Shown here piece by piece: positions 8,143 to 57,079 of a stretch of 64,000 nt of DNA (position 1 is its first letter; each line of letters begins with the position of its first letter). This DNA is from an uncultured Eubacteriales bacterium. Its GTDB lineage: Bacteria; Pseudomonadota; Alphaproteobacteria; RF32; CAG-239. A program made the translations under genes and the position numbers. The stretch covers positions 7,993 through 71,992 of the forward strand of contig CAVGVF010000001.1 in NCBI GenBank assembly GCA_963632615.1, written 5' to 3'. The notes under the pieces are model-generated. The model did no database searches, was not told the DNA's origin, and saw only the letters and a program-made list of their open reading frames with translations.

Positions 8143-8218
8143 AGGGGTATAGCTCAGTTGGTAGAGCATCGGTCTCCAAAACCGAGTGTCGTGAGTTCGA
8201 ATCTTACTGCCCCTGCCA
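8143..8218 (+). tRNA. trnW: tRNA-Trp (anticodon CCA)
   Basis: A 76-nt cloverleaf folds by hand: acceptor AGGGGTA/TGCCCCT, anticodon loop CTCCAAA, T-loop TTCGAAT, encoded CCA. Confidence 0.93.
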
Positions 8219-8607
8219 AAACAAAGCCGCCATTAGGGCGGTTTTTTTGTGGCATTCGGGGCTGTTGATGAGAACTCACGAAAGAGTGGTTCGACCACAA
8301 GCGAAAGGCGGACTTTTGGACACCGGTGAGCTTTGCGAATGAGCGCCGTGGCGGCGTAGCCAATCTTACTGCCCCTGCCAAAACAAAGCCGCCATTAGGG
8401 CGGTTTTTTTGTGGCATTCGGGGCTGTTGATGAGAACTCACGAAAGAGTGGTTCGACCACAAGCGAAAGGCGGACTTTTGGACACCGGTGAGCTTTGCGA
8501 ATGAGCGCCGTGGCGGCGTAGCCAATCTTACTGCCCCTGCCAAAACAAAACCGCCTTTAGGTCGGTTTTTTTTATGGCATTCGGGGCTGTTGATGAGAAC
8601 TCGGTTC
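8200..8607 (+). repeat. 2.5 tandem copies of a 162-bp unit, each led by the last 19 nt of tRNA-Trp
   Basis: Units start at 8200, 8362 and 8524 with AATCTTACTGCCCCTGCCA (T-loop A58 to CCA). Each continues with a terminator hairpin and a core of about 110 nt. Copies 1 and 2 read identical. Copy 3 is diverged in the terminator stem, has a 10-nt deletion and is truncated. Confidence 0.9.
8226..8248 (+). terminator. rho-independent terminator after tRNA-Trp
   Basis: CCGCC/GGCGG stem with loop ATTAG, followed by T7. Confidence 0.75.
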
Positions 8608-25237: not shown

Positions 25238-25313
<76 letters not shown>

Positions 25314-25321
25314 TTGTTTTC

Positions 25322-25356
25322 AAGGGGTTATGACAATTCATAGCCCTTTATTTTTA
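25322..25356 (+). terminator. probable terminator after tRNA-Thr
   Basis: AAGGGGTTATG / CATAGCCCTT imperfect stem followed by TATTTTTAT. Confidence 0.5.
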
Positions 25357-25381
25357 TAAAACAAAACCCGCTGCAAATAGC

Positions 25382-25535
25382 GGGCGGATGTTCAGAAACC
25401 GTAAAAACCTTAACGGCTCGGCTTATTCAGCTCATAGCCTTATTTAGCCGACATCCGCTCTAAGCAGAAATCGGCATATAACAATTTTAAGTCGCTTATG
25501 CGTAGCGACTAGGTTTTTAAGGGTTTCTGACGCCC
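25382..25535. ncRNA. candidate structured small RNA (154 nt, class and strand unresolved)
   Basis: The two ends pair over about 21 bp in three blocks: GGGCG/CGCCC, TCAGAAACC/GGTTTCTGA and AAAAACC/GGTTTTT. Internal hairpins are TCGGCT/AGCCGA and GTCGCT/AGCGAC. No ORF is present. Confidence 0.4.
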
Positions 25536-25658
25536 TAAACCGACCATAATCGGTTCAAAATAAGTTTAACGAACTGTATCAATTTTAGCAAGAAAAATGT
25601 TACAATAAAAAAGGAGCAGAAAATTCATCCTACCCCTTTTTAAATAACAGCTTAAATT

Positions 25659-26846
25659 TTACTTATGCAAAGCCAAGCGCATCGTATCTTGAGCGATAAC
25701 CAATTCTTCATCAGTCGGAATAACAAAAACTTTGACTTTTGAATCCGGAGTGGAAATCATAATTTCAGTAGCGTGCTTTTTGTTATTTTCATAGTCCGGC
25801 TTAATGCCTAAGTAAGACAGATGTTCCATAACCAGCTGACGGATAATAACGCCGTGTTCGCCAACGCCTGCGGTGAATACAATGGCATCAACTCCGCCCA
25901 AAACAGCAATGTAAGCGCCGATATATTTCAGCAATGCGTGCACGTATGTTTTGGTGGCCAAAATACATTTTTCGTTGCCGCTTAAATAGCCGGCTTCAAT
26001 GTCGCGGTTGTCGGAGTATCCGCATAAAGCCAGCATACCGCTTTGCTTGTTCATCATTTCATTTACTTCATGAGCGCTTAAGCCGTCTTTCTTTTCTATA
26101 TAAAGCGGAATATACGGGTCAATGTCACCGCAGCGGGTACCCATAATCGTGCCGGCCAGCGGAGTAAAACCCATAGAGGTATCAACGCACACGCCGTTGT
26201 CAATAGCCGAAATAGACGCGCCGTTGCCCATGTGGCAGGTAATTATTTTACCCTTTTTGCCAATCAATTCGGCACAGCGTTCCGAAACATATTTATGTGA
26301 AGTGCCGTGAAAACCGTAGCGGCGGATTTTATTGCGCACATACTGATCTTCCGGCAGAGCATAGCGGTAAGCTTCCGGCGGCATAGTCTGATGGAAAGAG
26401 GTGTCAAACACTGCAACCTGCGGAATATCCGGCAAAGCCGCCTTAACCGCCTTAATGCCCAGCACATGAGCCGGATTATGCAGCGGAGCCAAATCCGATA
26501 AATCTGCAATCTGTTCAATTACTTTATCCGTAATCAAAACCGAGCCTTTAAAAATATCGCCACCCTGCACAATACGGTGGCCGACAGCGCTGAGCTCTTC
26601 CAAATTTTTCAAAGCGCCGTTCAGCAGGCATTTCAAAACATCTTTAATAGCTTCGGCGTGGGTTGGCATACTCATCAGCTCTTCTTTTTTATCAGAGCCG
26701 GTATGCTGATATTTCAAAATAGAATTGGCCTGCCCGATGCGTTCCGCAATACCTTTGGAAACAACATTGTAATTACCGCCGTCAACATTATAGAGCTGAA
26801 ATTTAAGAGAAGATGAACCGCAGTTTATAACTAAAATTTTTTCCAT
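25659..26846 (-). CDS. ackA: acetate kinase
   Basis: 395 aa. N-terminus ILVINCGSSSLKFQL, with HRIVQGG, GFHGTSH and TAGVGE motifs. Confidence 0.94.
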   Translation of the reverse strand: MEKILVINCGSSSLKFQLYNVDGGNYNVVSKGIAERIGQANSILKYQHTGSDKKEELMSMPTHAEAIKDVLKCLLNGALKNLEELSAVGHRIVQGGDIFKGSVLITDKVIEQIADLSDLAPLHNPAHVLGIKAVKAALPDIPQVAVFDTSFHQTMPPEAYRYALPEDQYVRNKIRRYGFHGTSHKYVSERCAELIGKKGKIITCHMGNGASISAIDNGVCVDTSMGFTPLAGTIMGTRCGDIDPYIPLYIEKKDGLSAHEVNEMMNKQSGMLALCGYSDNRDIEAGYLSGNEKCILATKTYVHALLKYIGAYIAVLGGVDAIVFTAGVGEHGVIIRQLVMEHLSYLGIKPDYENNKKHATEIMISTPDSKVKVFVIPTDEELVIAQDTMRLALHK

Positions 26847-43472: not shown

Positions 43473-44585
43473 TTATAATTTAAAATACAGAACAAGCTGA
43501 CAAGCTCTGTCCGAATTACATTTTTTGCAAAAATCATGAATTTCATTTGGCTTGGCTGAACCGATTTTTATTGTTTTAGCGTTATAACCGCCGAAACTGT
43601 CATCGCTGCCGCGGCTTTGCACTTGTCTGATATATGGCGAAACTGCCTGCGCTTGTTCTAAAAATGTCACACAATATTGCTGCTTTAGACGGCTTGATTT
43701 TTCTGCTGAAAAAATATCAAAAATCAAAAGATATTCCAAGGCTGAATATTTTATTCCGGCTTCATCGCTCCACTTGCTTTCGGTAAAATAAACATAGATA
43801 AGATTATCGGCAAAATCTTTAACATGATATAAACCGGCTTTTTTCATGCCGTCAGGGATTACTCCCATAGCGTCCATAATATCCGCTGTCGGCACAGCTT
43901 TCTTTGTCGTATTATATTCACGCAGAAAATCATCTTTTAAATTAACGCACTGTAAAAAAAATTCAGCTAATTGCTCTTTTTGCCGGCTGATTTTCCACAT
44001 TTCCATGGCCTTAGAATAACCGGCAATTCCGCCAACAGAAAGCACGGCGATAATGGCCAGCACGCCCAGCATTTCAATCATTGACCGGCCAGATTGCAAC
44101 ATACTCTTATAGTCATCCTTGGCTTTGAGCGTCAGCTCATTCGCCGAGCATCCAGGATGGTATATCCGCTTAAAAAACTGGTAACAAACACTAAGCCTTT
44201 GTCTTTTACCGTCATTGCCGGACGTGACGCACAGTCCGTTCCGGCAATCTTGGCTCAACATACTCCTTTTGAATAATAAGGCTAATTTATTGACTAGGTT
44301 AGTCACTTGTTGCACCAAGATCCTAGGCACAAGGCCTAGGATGACTGGTGTAAAAAAACGATAAGCTATACTGTTTCCTACTTTTAATAATATTGCCATA
44401 AAAGTCCTGGATTCTCCGGACAGTTCACTTCGTTCACGCCGAAGAATGACGTTGTGAGCAGAGGAGAATAAACGCAAGTATATACCGACTGTTTGTTCTC
44501 TAGTACCCCTCACCCGGAGCGGGGCTCCGACCTCTCCCGCACAGGGCGAGGTTTTAATTTTATTTTTCAAATTTTTTAATATCAT
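43473..44585 (-). CDS. prepilin-type N-terminal cleavage/methylation domain protein (pilin-like A); start uncertain
   Basis: The class III signal (QSG|RSMIEMLGVLAIIAVLSVGG, Glu at +5) begins at codon 162 (ATG 44102). The long ORF runs from ATG 44585, which has AGGAAG 6 nt upstream, and stays in frame. Cys pairs lie in the C-terminal half. Confidence 0.75.
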   Translation of the reverse strand: MILKNLKNKIKTSPCAGEVGAPLRVRGTREQTVGIYLRLFSSAHNVILRRERSELSGESRTFMAILLKVGNSIAYRFFTPVILGLVPRILVQQVTNLVNKLALLFKRSMLSQDCRNGLCVTSGNDGKRQRLSVCYQFFKRIYHPGCSANELTLKAKDDYKSMLQSGRSMIEMLGVLAIIAVLSVGGIAGYSKAMEMWKISRQKEQLAEFFLQCVNLKDDFLREYNTTKKAVPTADIMDAMGVIPDGMKKAGLYHVKDFADNLIYVYFTESKWSDEAGIKYSALEYLLIFDIFSAEKSSRLKQQYCVTFLEQAQAVSPYIRQVQSRGSDDSFGGYNAKTIKIGSAKPNEIHDFCKKCNSDRACQLVLYFKL

Positions 44586-44827
44586 TACAACTTCCTATCA
44601 TTTTGAAATCACAACAAAAAAGCCGCTTAAAAAAAGCAGCTGGAAGTTGGTAACCACAACTAGATGGTGCAGTATATTGCATAATATATTTTACTGCCTT
44701 CCAGCCAAAACCAGAAAGCATGCAAAATTATCGTCTTTACACAAGACGCTAGTTGAGGGGTTACCACACCCCGAACAGGCTATTGCCTGTCTGTTTTCAA
44801 ACTAAACGGATATACTGAAAATGTAAA
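44103..44827 (-). promoter_or_regulatory. conserved structured leader, copy A (homologous to 55737..56458)
   Basis: It has -35/-10-like boxes (TTTACA/TAGTTT, 17-nt spacer), hairpins that covary with copy B, a terminator and an anti-SD/SD arrangement. A 47-nt block (44405-44451) is identical to 56116-56162. Confidence 0.6.
44615..44640 (-). terminator. intrinsic terminator/attenuator inside leader A
   Basis: On the minus strand, GCTGCTT/AAGCGGC stem followed by TTTTTTGTTGT. It is positionally equivalent to 55928-55954, with a different stem sequence. Confidence 0.6.
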
Positions 44828-55097: not shown

Positions 55098-55493
55098 ATG
55101 TGGACTATGCTGAAAAAACTGGGAGCCGGAGAATATTCGCTTAAAATAACTTTTTGGCTGTTCGGCTTAATGGGAATGCTGTTTTTTACAATCGCAACTC
55201 ACATCACGCACAGCGGGGCTTTGCGTATAATTTGCCGCGGCAGAGTCTGCCCCCGCAGCATTTTGTTATATATTCTGAGCAATATTCCGAATTTGATGAC
55301 AGGAAGTTCCGGACGCTTATCGGCTTTTGCTCCGCACTTGTTAGTTTGCTCGCTGTTTATCTGCTATTTTATTATATTGATACGCGGCTTATGGAAATGC
55401 GGCGATGCCTATGAAGGTGCAAAATTCTGGACTGTCTGCGCTAAAGCCATTATTGTATGCTTAGGCTTTTTAAGCTTAAAATCCATTATTTAG
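55098..55493 (+). CDS. hypothetical membrane protein
   Basis: 131 aa with 3-4 hydrophobic helices. Confidence 0.5.
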   Translation: MWTMLKKLGAGEYSLKITFWLFGLMGMLFFTIATHITHSGALRIICRGRVCPRSILLYILSNIPNLMTGSSGRLSAFAPHLLVCSLFICYFIILIRGLWKCGDAYEGAKFWTVCAKAIIVCLGFLSLKSII

Positions 55494-55501
55494 GAGCTGT
55501 C

Positions 55502-55669
55502 ATGAAAAAAATTATCTGTTATCTGCTACTCTTTTCTTTAGCTTCATGCAGCGGCTTTGTTGCCGGCAATATCAGCAAAGAACGCCAGCATTTGTATGAA
55601 TATAACAACAATCAGGAATATTGCGATAAAAATCCCAACCGCTGTGTTAATAATATCCCTTGGAGCTAA
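55502..55669 (+). CDS. small lipoprotein
   Basis: ATG 55502 gives MKKIICYLLLFSLASC, with lipobox LASC. 55 aa, followed by a terminator. Confidence 0.6.
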   Translation: MKKIICYLLLFSLASCSGFVAGNISKERQHLYEYNNNQEYCDKNPNRCVNNIPWS

Positions 55670-55685
55670 TAAAATAAATTACTTC

Positions 55686-55722
55686 AAAAATCCTTAGACT
55701 TTTACTAAACTAAGGATTTTTT
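55686..55722 (+). terminator. rho-independent terminator of the lipoprotein gene
   Basis: AAAAATCCTTAG / CTAAGGATTTTT stem plus T-run. Confidence 0.75.
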
Positions 55723-55736
55723 CATATATAAAGTTC

Positions 55737-56458
55737 TTTACTTTTAATGTCTGTTCCTTTAATCTGAAATTGGATAAGCGATAGTTTATCTGAGGTGTGA
55801 GAACCTCTTATTCATGCGTCTAGCAGACGTTAAATACCTTCTGGTCAAATGACTGGAAGGTAGCAAAATATGCTATTGCTAGCTAATATGCTACACTATA
55901 ATCATGAATAATAGTTCTCAACTTCCAGTCGTCCTTCTTAAAGACGGCTTTTTTGTTGTAATTTCAAAATGAAAGGAAGTTGTAATGATAAAAAATTTGA
56001 GAAATAAAATTAAAACCTCACCCCGTGCGGGAGAGGTCGGAGCTCCGCTCCGAGTGAGGGGTACTAGAGAACAAACAGTCGATATATACTTGCATTTGTT
56101 CGCCACCACTCTCAGCGTCATTCTTCGGCGTGAACGAAGTGAACTGTCCGGAGAATCCAGGAATATAATGGCAATATTTTTAAATGCAGCAAACAGTATT
56201 GTCTCTAGCTTTTTTACCGTCATTACCGGATTTATTCCGGTAATCTTAGTACAGCGGGTGACTAACCAAGTCAATAAATTTGCCTTATTATTGCATAAGT
56301 ACCGGTTCAGCCAAGATTGCCGGAACGCGTCCGGCAATGACGGGTGCTGTGGACGCTTGTTTATGTTTTTCCCATTCCTTAAATTACTGAATCGGATGTA
56401 CCATCCTGGATCCTCGGCGAATGAGCTGGCGCTCAAAGCCAAGGATGACAATAAGAGT
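55737..56458 (+). promoter_or_regulatory. conserved structured leader, copy B (homologous to 44827..44103 minus)
   Basis: TTTACT (55737-55742) and TAATCT (55760-55765) are 17 nt apart. The leader also has covarying hairpins, a terminator at 55928-55954 and an anti-SD CAACTTCC (55919-55926) facing the SD GGAAGTTG (55975-55982). In-ORF hairpins lie at 56222-56244 and 56316-56338. Confidence 0.6.
55928..55954 (+). terminator. intrinsic terminator/attenuator inside leader B
   Basis: GTCGTC/GACGGC stem followed by TTTTTTGTTGT. Confidence 0.6.
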
Positions 56459-57079
56459 GTGTTGCAATATGGCCGGTCAATGATAGAAATGCTCGGCGTT
56501 TTAGCGATAATCGGAGTATTGTCTGTTGCAGGCATCGCCGGTTACTCTAAGGCTATGCAAATGTATGCCATTAACAAACAACGTAATGCTTTAATAGAAT
56601 TTTTATCTAATTTTTTACATATAAAAGATGAACTGCCCTACAAAGAAGACGGAACAGCGATAAATTATCCGGAACTAATGGAAGCAATGGATATGCTACC
56701 TAAAGAATTTACAGTTGTACATGGAATACAATGGGTAAATATGCGAGATAAATACGGTCATAATATAAGATTCTATTATTCTAATAACGGCTTTGGCATT
56801 CTCTACAGTTTTCATAATAATAAAAACAGCTCTCTTGTTTGCCAGGCTTTGGCTGAAACTGCTTTAAGTTTTAAAAATGATATATATATGATGTATCGTC
56901 AACCTATGGCCGGCAGCGGTATTCCCTATTACAGAATTTACGGCAACCATTATTGCATAAAAAACGCTAAATGCCTAAATAACTTAACCGTTAATGATAT
57001 AAATGAACTTTGCTATTTTTATAATGATAAAGATGAAAACAAATATCACTATGTAATCCAAATTGGCTTCAAAAAATAG
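55985..57079 (+). CDS. prepilin-type N-terminal cleavage/methylation domain protein (pilin-like B); start uncertain
   Basis: The class III signal (QYG|RSMIEMLGVLAIIGVLSVAG) begins at codon 159. The only internal starts are GTG 56459 and TTG 56462. The long ORF from ATG 55985 has AGGAAG 6 nt upstream. Confidence 0.75.
   Translation: MIKNLRNKIKTSPRAGEVGAPLRVRGTREQTVDIYLHLFATTLSVILRRERSELSGESRNIMAIFLNAANSIVSSFFTVITGFIPVILVQRVTNQVNKFALLLHKYRFSQDCRNASGNDGCCGRLFMFFPFLKLLNRMYHPGSSANELALKAKDDNKSVLQYGRSMIEMLGVLAIIGVLSVAGIAGYSKAMQMYAINKQRNALIEFLSNFLHIKDELPYKEDGTAINYPELMEAMDMLPKEFTVVHGIQWVNMRDKYGHNIRFYYSNNGFGILYSFHNNKNSSLVCQALAETALSFKNDIYMMYRQPMAGSGIPYYRIYGNHYCIKNAKCLNNLTVNDINELCYFYNDKDENKYHYVIQIGFKK

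Follow-up and report, generated by a model that had tools for sequence, protein, structure and literature searches.

The leader at positions 55737-55984 (+) of the window, the 64,000-nucleotide (nt) stretch of DNA analysed here, almost certainly belongs to a structured RNA family maintained by selection. The family is previously undescribed and of a known mechanistic kind, and is unusual in its copy number, its regulon and its stand-alone copies. We consider it probable that the leader is a cis-acting attenuator and translational switch, working in a riboswitch-like manner. At this locus (locus B) the leader follows a small lipoprotein gene (55457-55669) and its terminator and precedes ATG 55985, which opens a 364-codon open reading frame (ORF) with a pilin-like protein at its end. 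A first-pass annotation had described a riboswitch-like module here, duplicated at a second pilin-like gene (locus A, 44827-44586 (-)). The homology is confirmed, and all the boxes, hairpins and pairings it listed are present at the positions given. The two leaders are 71% identical in a pairwise alignment, with indels of 1, 10, 2, 6, 5 and 2 nt, and the copy at A precedes a paralogous 370-codon ORF on the minus strand. Homology continues past the ATG for ~580 nt, to about 56564, at 82% identity, and all indels within this ORF part are multiples of three. The picture of a pilin-gene module in two copies did not survive, as a third copy lies inside the window and a large family beyond it, and members also precede lipoprotein, other surface and restriction-modification genes. 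The third copy, the extent of the family and four of the helices described below (P2, P7, the local P4 hairpin and P6) were absent from that annotation.

Gut metagenome assemblies contain homologues of the ORF. One of these, P0040 (locus L005; L numbers denote fetched contig stretches with leader matches), has a short leader peptide, MKNNQFG|RSMIEML, directly 3' of the same ~220-nt leader, and three blocks conserved in B, A and L005 gave the search pattern CTGGAAGG N40-70 AACTTCCAG N8-30 GGCTTTTT. Scanning one genome per species, in 185,579 species, returned at least 109 stretches. Among the pattern matches listed, all but two are from gut or rumen metagenome-assembled genomes (MAGs), and the MAG labels are nearly all Alphaproteobacteria, Rhodospirillales, 'Acetobacter' or 'Azospirillum'. 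A covariance model, R1 (189 positions, 39 pairs; threshold E <= 1e-8), was searched in the pattern-match loci and the window and found 110 copies, including copies without the anchor sequences, whilst rejecting two non-alphaproteobacterial pattern matches (Clostridia and Planctomycetia contigs). The family occurs in at least 65 species-level assemblies, all gut or rumen Alphaproteobacteria MAGs, and can reach high copy number (at least ten copies in CAKQDU01, nine in JBNMLT01 and eight in CAVKTH01). Contigs carrying both leader and pilin-like gene are also found under the labels 'Bacteroidaceae bacterium' and 'Candidatus Avigastranaerophilus' (L008, L034, L047, L048, L049, L069, L072, L079, L083), probably through errors in binning or labelling.

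Searches with Rfam 15 rule out a known RNA family. At the gathering threshold the whole window gave only three tRNAs, region 55700-56500 gave only chance-level small nucleolar RNA and internal ribosome entry site matches far below threshold even at E <= 10, and 18 further leader loci gave only tRNAs and one rpsB small RNA (sRNA) elsewhere. No Rfam 15 model matches the leader, in agreement with the earlier remark that it lacks the core of the cyclic di-GMP (c-di-GMP) I and II classes. No description of the motif, its sequence included, was found in the full-text literature as far as this was accessible, and the supplement of PMC8040213 may contain an unnamed candidate.

Selection on the structure is seen in covariation. 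In the 110-copy alignment, which was fitted to the model structure and in which three blocks are fixed by the search pattern, 96.6% of cells are paired (85.7% in column shuffles), double-change cells number 517 (133 in shuffles), and 32 of the 39 pairs have double changes. None of these measures was reached by any of 500 shuffles, and pairing falls to 33-51% when the partner is slid by one to three columns. G-U pairs outnumber A-C pairs by 557 to 30 (19:1), which places the structure in sense-strand RNA and not in double-stranded DNA repeats. The first-pass annotation had named a lack of further homologues, or of covariation, as the outcome that would count against it; instead there are 110 homologues in at least 65 genomes, and covariation beyond all 500 of 500 shuffles. 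Thus the leader has a conserved structured domain supported by covariation, as riboswitches in general do.

Individual helices are similarly well supported. P2 is paired in 99.5% of cells, with AU 48, UA 41, CG 10 and GC 9 at one position, and on a structure-blind MAFFT alignment it still pairs in 98.3% of cells against 77.1% when shuffled (0/500 shuffles). P3 is paired in 96.7% of cells with double changes at all five of its pairs, the two parts of P5 (model helices 4 and 5) in 98.3% and 93.2% with many double changes, P6 in 98% (UA 93, CG 13) and the terminator stem, which covaries strongly, in 98.9%. The top pairs of P4 also covary (columns 123/138: UA 52, CG 31, UG 25, one mismatch). P-outer is paired in 98.4% of cells, and at columns 138/242, the sole P-outer position left free by the search pattern, the counts are AU 51, GC 37 and GU 19 with two mismatches. 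P7 is complementary inside each copy, the matched duplex having -8.5 kcal/mol and the mismatched one -2.3 (P = 2e-56). The covariation of P-outer and P7 is not an artefact of alignment, since neither helix is in the alignment model. Conservation is also evident between genomes: at L001, the syntenic locus in a related genome, the leader is 99.2% identical to that of the window genome, with 85-93% identity in flanking genes and 57-67% in the pilin body.

Of four successive hairpins proposed earlier, the first, third and fourth (P1, P3 and P5a) are real. The second (S1) is pairable in 94.7% of cells without significant covariation, and its last pair belongs to P2, so it was rejected as an independently covarying hairpin. 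S1 could close an H-type pseudoknot with P2, and it is better read as part of this long-range or pseudoknotted helix. At the position of P1, 100 of 108 copies have a hairpin of -3 kcal/mol or better, with differing stems, which is a check on folding and not on covariation. The whole B leader folds at -69.6 kcal/mol (z = -6.5), and none of 200 shuffles was as good. A repeat search in B recovered the strands of P2 (TGAGAAC and GTTCTCA), of P7 (TTATTCATG and, at 55903-11, CATGAATAA) and of P-outer (GACTGGAAG and CTTCCAGTC, 9/9 complementary), along with a further complement of TACCTTCTGGTCA with TGACTGGAAGGTA. The earlier CTGGAAG...CTTCCAG pairing is this P-outer helix, a perfect 9-nt inverted repeat that covaries across the family. 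The bases of the P5 internal loop are nearly invariant in the family.

Transcription is predicted to begin within the element itself. The -35 and -10 boxes noted earlier are present with their 17-nt spacer in both B (Table 1) and A (TTTACA 44827-22, TAGTTT 44804-44799), and were not called in either by a simple promoter consensus scan. Across the family, 83 of 107 copies have TTTAC[TA] or TTGAC[AT] followed after 16-18 nt by TAnnnT, and these boxes are 26-30 nt upstream of the first G conserved in the structure. The spacer is 17 nt in 69 copies. As the position of the boxes is fixed relative to the structure, the predicted start falls at the foot of P1.

The central feature of the leader is a set of helices that cannot coexist. 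The strand GACUGGAAGG covaries with two partners, the upstream strand of P4 (columns 123/138) and the downstream CUUCCAGUC (columns 138/242). Two mutually exclusive sets of helices each have compensatory support: P4, P7 and the terminator on the one hand, and P-outer and P6 on the other. P6 and P7 would exclude each other on geometric grounds, because the 3' strand of P7 fills the loop of P6 with a 0-nt linker. The terminator, a G+C-rich hairpin followed by a U-run as in intrinsic terminators generally, was correctly placed by the first-pass annotation (55928-55948, with T6 at 55949-54); a terminator scanner called those of A and the third copy and missed that of B because its 9-nt loop exceeds the scanner limit. 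In the family its mean energy is -7.8 kcal/mol and its U-run averages 6.3 (minimum 4). P-outer, with a family mean of -16.3 kcal/mol as a duplex, occupies the three basal terminator pairs, and without these the terminator retains -1.2 kcal/mol. The minimum-energy fold of B consists of P1, P2+P7, P3, P4 and the terminator (the OFF conformer), and the nested P-outer fold is less stable by about 10 kcal/mol, with the pseudoknot uncounted.

The same strand also reaches the ribosome-binding site. As proposed earlier, positions 55919-26 (CAACTTCC) are a perfect 8-nt complement of 55975-82 (GGAAGTTG), which holds the Shine-Dalgarno (SD) sequence, and AACUUCC has two alternative partners, the SD and the opposite strand of P-outer. 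Amongst leader genes GGAAG is present at 60% of ribosome-binding sites (48% for non-pilin genes) and GGAAGUU at 43% (25%), compared with 2.4% and 0.5% of controls, which were 421 other genes of the same loci. Ribosome-binding sites of leader genes also form stronger duplexes with CCAACUUCCAG, at -8.3 kcal/mol against -4.6 in controls (P = 6e-25; non-pilin P = 8e-9). The proposed architecture, a leader whose competing pairings control both termination and translation, is therefore supported by family-wide covariation and by SD complementarity, and the exclusive helices, with the terminator and the SD among them, constitute an expression platform of the kind found in riboswitches.

We propose the following mechanism. 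Transcription would start from the sigma-70-type promoter at 55737-55765, at about 55772, and the first ~185 nt would fold into P1, S1/P2, P3, P4, P5, P6/P7 and P-outer. In the OFF state, the likely thermodynamic default in copy B, P4 (CCUUCUGGUC/GACUGGAAGG) and the long helix P2+P7 would form and leave CUUCCAGUC free, so that the terminator at 55928-55954 could form and transcription would stop ~30 nt before the start codon. In any OFF RNA that is read through, the free AACUUCC would pair with the SD, GGAAGUU. In the ON state GACUGGAAG would leave P4 and pair with CUUCCAGUC as P-outer, closing a three-way junction with P5 and P6, and P2 would probably dock as a pseudoknot from the S1 loop. 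P-outer would then take up the three basal terminator pairs together with the anti-SD CUUCC, allowing read-through with an open SD. P-outer would in this way be both antiterminator and anti-anti-SD, with P4 as its competitor, and a putative effector (a small ligand, a protein or an RNA) binding the conserved junction and loops would shift the balance.

The position of the leader relative to genes fits a role in cis. Some 95 of the 110 copies (about 86%) are co-oriented with an ORF start behind them. Among the copies listed, the start codon lies 9-99 nt past the model end, mostly 9-31 nt, a distance so short that there is no room for a second promoter. Behind the 110 copies lie 51 pilin-like genes, 17 lipoprotein genes and 11 genes for other signal-peptide proteins, and Pfam examples include a PEGA lipoprotein, the OMP beta-barrel/Opacity family, a GT8 glycosyltransferase, a Hexapeptide transferase, N6 DNA methylase, HsdR_N and YrbL or kinase-like proteins. 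Genes of these kinds are what host-adapted bacteria vary. A leader is present within 900 nt of 50 of the 66 pilin-like genes in the fetched loci, a biased figure, as presence of the leader was the basis for choosing these loci. That one leader recurs ahead of many genes in a genome, most of them concerned with envelope and surface variation, indicates a regulon.

Several observations count against a cis-acting switch. About 8-15 of the 110 copies have no gene directly behind them (including the third window copy and L040, L061 and L104), and in two tandem pairs a lipoprotein gene follows the second unit only, the first units being geneless; such copies fit a free-standing RNA better than a leader. 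The central P4 pairs are broken in about 20 copies, and neither S1 nor the pseudoknot is proven by covariation. As the copies are related by descent and the anchors were fixed by the pattern, the covariation counts do not represent independent events, and part of the apparent conservation of CUGGAAGG, AACUUCCAG and GGC-U5 stems from how the copies were ascertained. Inheritance along with the unit, instead of selection for pairing, could explain the SD motif. Finally, no effector can be inferred from sequence.

The geneless copies raise the question of whether the family consists of stand-alone sRNAs acting in trans, for example through CUUCC or CUGGAAGG on ribosome-binding sites or sister leaders, with gene proximity being secondary. 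Nearly every copy has a promoter and a terminator, orphan copies exist (the third window copy converges on a tRNA gene), each tandem unit has its own promoter, and CUUCC is an exposed anti-SD-like segment. We nevertheless regard this explanation as unlikely, since some 86% of copies have a start codon in the same orientation, mostly too close behind them to accommodate another promoter, the complementary ribosome-binding site is precisely that of the adjacent gene, and the base of the terminator overlaps a covarying alternative helix. The two roles are compatible, as terminated leaders could also act in trans. A constitutive structured 5' untranslated region (UTR) that senses nothing, stabilises or insulates the transcript and has a leaky terminator setting a fixed level of expression, its alternative pairings being folding intermediates, is a rather improbable account. 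It would suit the position of P1 as the first element of the transcript, where a hairpin could protect against RNases, a terminator that is only moderately strong at -7.8 kcal/mol and the lack of an identified effector. However, compensatory changes have kept both of two incompatible helix sets, even through the complete rewrite seen in type-2 copies (described below), and a passive stabiliser has no need of nearly invariant unpaired bases in the junction and the P5 internal loop.

Many copies per genome before unrelated genes, promoter included, may also suggest a mobile promoter-carrying repeat (a miniature inverted-repeat transposable element (MITE) or Correia-like unit) whose hairpins are relics of the element, and the gene set resembles that near Neisseria Correia elements. 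This is very unlikely. There are no terminal inverted repeats (matched ends 10.4/16, mismatched 10.3, shuffled 10.2), and apparent ones in B (matches I2 and I5) were rejected as they are at the chance level for A+T-rich sequence and the family-wide end test is negative. The strong orientation bias, the 19:1 ratio of G-U to A-C, the greater conservation of the leader than of neighbouring genes and the multi-helix compensatory evolution among copies of one genome also speak against it. An inverton, in which DNA inverted repeats serve a recombinase, was considered since the gene set has a phase-variable look; it is ruled out by the same G-U and A-C counts and by a promoter that lies outside the repeats. 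A self-cleaving or catalytic RNA, with a ribozyme core placed in 5' UTRs, seems the most doubtful of these: crossing helices (P2 and P7 versus P-outer), invariant junction bases and high copy number would be expected of one, but no Rfam 15 ribozyme model matches, there is no evidence of a cleavage site, and the terminator and SD logic explains the crossing helices as alternatives.

The cis-acting attenuator and translational switch may have wider consequences. One tentative and less probable extension is that it represents a new riboswitch class, in which a pseudoknotted three-way junction binds a global signal and switches on a surface and contingency regulon at a single stroke, throughout a clade of uncultured gut Alphaproteobacteria; the signal may be, for example, a second messenger of the cyclic-dinucleotide type or a host or gut metabolite. 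If so, the regulon would consist of pilin-like, Opa-like outer-membrane, lipoprotein, GT8 glycosyltransferase and DNA methylase or restriction genes, and the same circuit would include the stand-alone and tandem copies as sRNAs under ligand control or as decoys. If the reading as a cis-acting switch is right, one RNA device would run a large part of the surface repertoire in an uncultured gut and rumen clade, and its 185-nt RNA would offer an experimental handle on what these gut organisms sense. The leader makes a strong candidate for a new class of attenuator or riboswitch, as it lies outside Rfam 15, is present in up to ten or more copies per genome and has alternative folds that can be tested.

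Table 1. Features of the leader in locus B, its other copies in the window and the adjoining coding extension
Feature	Position	Strand	Remarks
-35 box TTTACT of leader promoter	55737..55742	+	family conservation begins here, not before
-10 box TAATCT	55760..55765	+	predicted transcription start about 55772
P1, 5'-terminal hairpin GGAUAAGC-GAUA-GUUUAUCU	55772..55791	+	from folding
S1 hairpin GAGGU...ACCUC	55792..55807	+	loop holds P2 5' strand
P2 5' strand UGAGAAC	55798..55804	+	pairs with 55914-55920
P7 5' strand UUAUUCAUG, hypervariable linker	55808..55816	+	pairs with 55903-55911
P3 hairpin CGUCU-AGC-AGACG	55817..55829	+	from covariation
P4 local hairpin CCUUCUGGUC-AAAU-GACUGGAAGG	55837..55860	+	proposed anti-antiterminator; family mean -12.7 kcal/mol
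P-outer 5' strand GACUGGAAG	55851..55859	+	common to P4 3' strand; complement of 55922-55930
P5: P5a GUAGCA/UGCUAC (55860-65 with 55889-94), A-rich internal loop AAAAUA/AAUAU, hairpin P5b	55860..55894	+	
P6 hairpin ACUAU...AUAGU	55895..55915	+	loop is P7 3' strand 55903-55911
P2 3' strand GUUCUCA	55914..55920	+	pairs with 55798-55804
CAACUUCCAGUC	55919..55930	+	anti-SD 55919-26; P-outer 3' strand 55922-30 (CUUCCAGUC); terminator base 55928-30
Intrinsic terminator GUCGUC-loop-GACGGC + U6	55928..55954	+	covarying stem
SD GGAAGUUG and start codon ATG 55985	55975..55987	+	complement of 55919-26; about 20 nt past terminator
162-codon in-frame extension of predicted prepilin leader peptide: palindromic modules, then G|RSMIEMLGVLAIIGVLS	55985..56470	+	outside RNA switch
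Leader copy A	44586..44827	-	upstream of pilin-like ORF 43473-44585 (-); covariance-model match 44611-44787, 165.6 bits; terminator 44641-44621
Third copy, divergent type 2, stand-alone	25356..25551	-	model R1, 75.4 bits, E = 2e-18; terminator 25385-25366

The third window copy has promoter-like boxes and a terminator of its own and no gene behind it, and it converges on a tRNA gene (25238-25310 (+)); upstream of it is an ORF (25659-26846 (-)) which we take to be ackA-like. Its P2 (UCAGAAA/UUUCUGA) and P-outer (GCGGAUG/CAUCCGC) are both compensated. Together with L072:1250 and L075:2470 it forms a group of three type-2 copies in which the switch strands are entirely different in sequence, with P4, P-outer (GCGGAUG/CAUCCGC) and P2 retained, all compensated. 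The tandem leader units are at L041 3466-3903 (-) and L025 2403-2839 (+), each unit having its own -35 and -10 boxes and terminator.

The protein encoded downstream carries the motif G|RSMIEMLGVLAIIGVLSV, which is invariant among homologues. Pilin profiles are approached below threshold (TIGR02532 at 15.4 against a cut-off of 16.3; PRK10506 at E of about 1e-3), and searches of the protein against Pfam and against PDB sequences gave no match, and 'pilin-like' is the right wording for the gene. ATG 55985 is the true start, and 162 codons separate it from the beginning of the pilin signal peptide. This extension is also found at 44100-44585 (-) and at L001 3001-3483; in these pilin-like ORFs it places about 160 extra codons before the prepilin signal G|RSMIEML, and it contains modules that are hairpins of the GTCATT-xCCGG...CCGGx-AATC type, with arms compensated between copies. 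These modules are absent from short-leader paralogues, and are present, absent or duplicated among homologues. The 476 nt after ATG 55985 were also considered as a non-coding leader, given the compensated hairpins and a weak bias of substitutions towards third codon positions (24/24/37), and this was ruled out. The extension is coding and not non-coding RNA, because its frame is free of stops (0, against 9-15 in other frames of B, A and L001; P < 2e-4), its indels between B and A (3, 3, 12 and 9 nt) are multiples of three and the same ATG is used in short-leader paralogues. The prepilin leader peptide would then be about 163 residues long, or there would be an equivalent requirement for read-through.

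As palindromic modules in a coding region with the frame preserved, these insertions resemble those of the RPE type, here apparently placed in frame within a leader peptide that is cleaved off. RPEs are dispersed in many unrelated genes, whereas each module here has 3-8 matches in 910 kb, with match locations examined at the long-leader pilin loci B, A and L001. When L001 3001-4080 is compared with window 55985-57079, the N-terminal extension is a mosaic of A-like and B-like segments, a pattern suggestive of gene conversion or the exchange of cassettes downstream of a 5' region that stays frozen. The leader could also help annotators to locate the genuine 5' ends and start codons of the pilin-like family, which is very large and poorly annotated.

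Other repeats were observed in the window. At 8143-8602 (+) the 3' end of a tRNA gene (8143-8215) and its terminator are present as three head-to-tail repeats with a period of 162 nt, two of them 100% identical; either a scar left at an integration site or an artefact of assembly may explain this. At 10803-11487 there are five diverged 58-nt direct repeats, 62-71% identical to the reference copy and spaced 99-273 nt start-to-start.

With regard to known systems, Correia (CREE) elements are short, multi-copy, promoter-bearing units near Neisseria genes for pilin, opacity proteins, lipooligosaccharide glycosyltransferases and restriction-modification, and form hairpins when transcribed. The leader differs from these and from MITEs in having no terminal inverted repeats, a fixed orientation and start-codon distance, and compensation at the RNA level. 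It is similar to the four-segment attenuator of the trp type in that its strands pair 1:2, 2:3 and 3:4 with 2:3 as the antiterminator, the four strands being P4-5' : GACUGGAAGG : CUUCCAGUC : terminator-3'/SD. A 12-codon ORF at 55814 in B was rejected as a leader peptide, as it is not conserved and most copies have AAGCG rather than ATGCG. With no conserved leader peptide there is no sensing of ribosome position, unlike in the trp-type attenuator, and the leader differs further in its large conserved domain (P1, P2, P3, P5, P6 and P7), as is found in riboswitch aptamers.

In its regulon the leader most resembles the multi-copy c-di-GMP riboswitches of Clostridioides difficile, which are found ahead of adhesin genes and a type IV pilin operon and among which an orphan copy and RNA-gene targets also occur (PMC11477304). 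The likeness to c-di-GMP-I and -II (RF01051, RF01786) in that organism extends to multi-copy leaders before pilin and surface genes and to a terminator with a competing helix. The leader differs in matching neither model at E <= 10, in its other helices and conserved bases, in its alphaproteobacterial host and in a regulon that also holds restriction-modification and glycosyltransferase genes. The term riboswitch proper would require ligand binding, and the mechanism suggested by the sequence is best called riboswitch-like. A SAM-I riboswitch reported to act as an sRNA (bioRxiv 10.1101/803072) provides a parallel for a terminated leader as a possible free RNA whose second role is in trans, and a similar use of this leader would account for its orphan and tandem copies.

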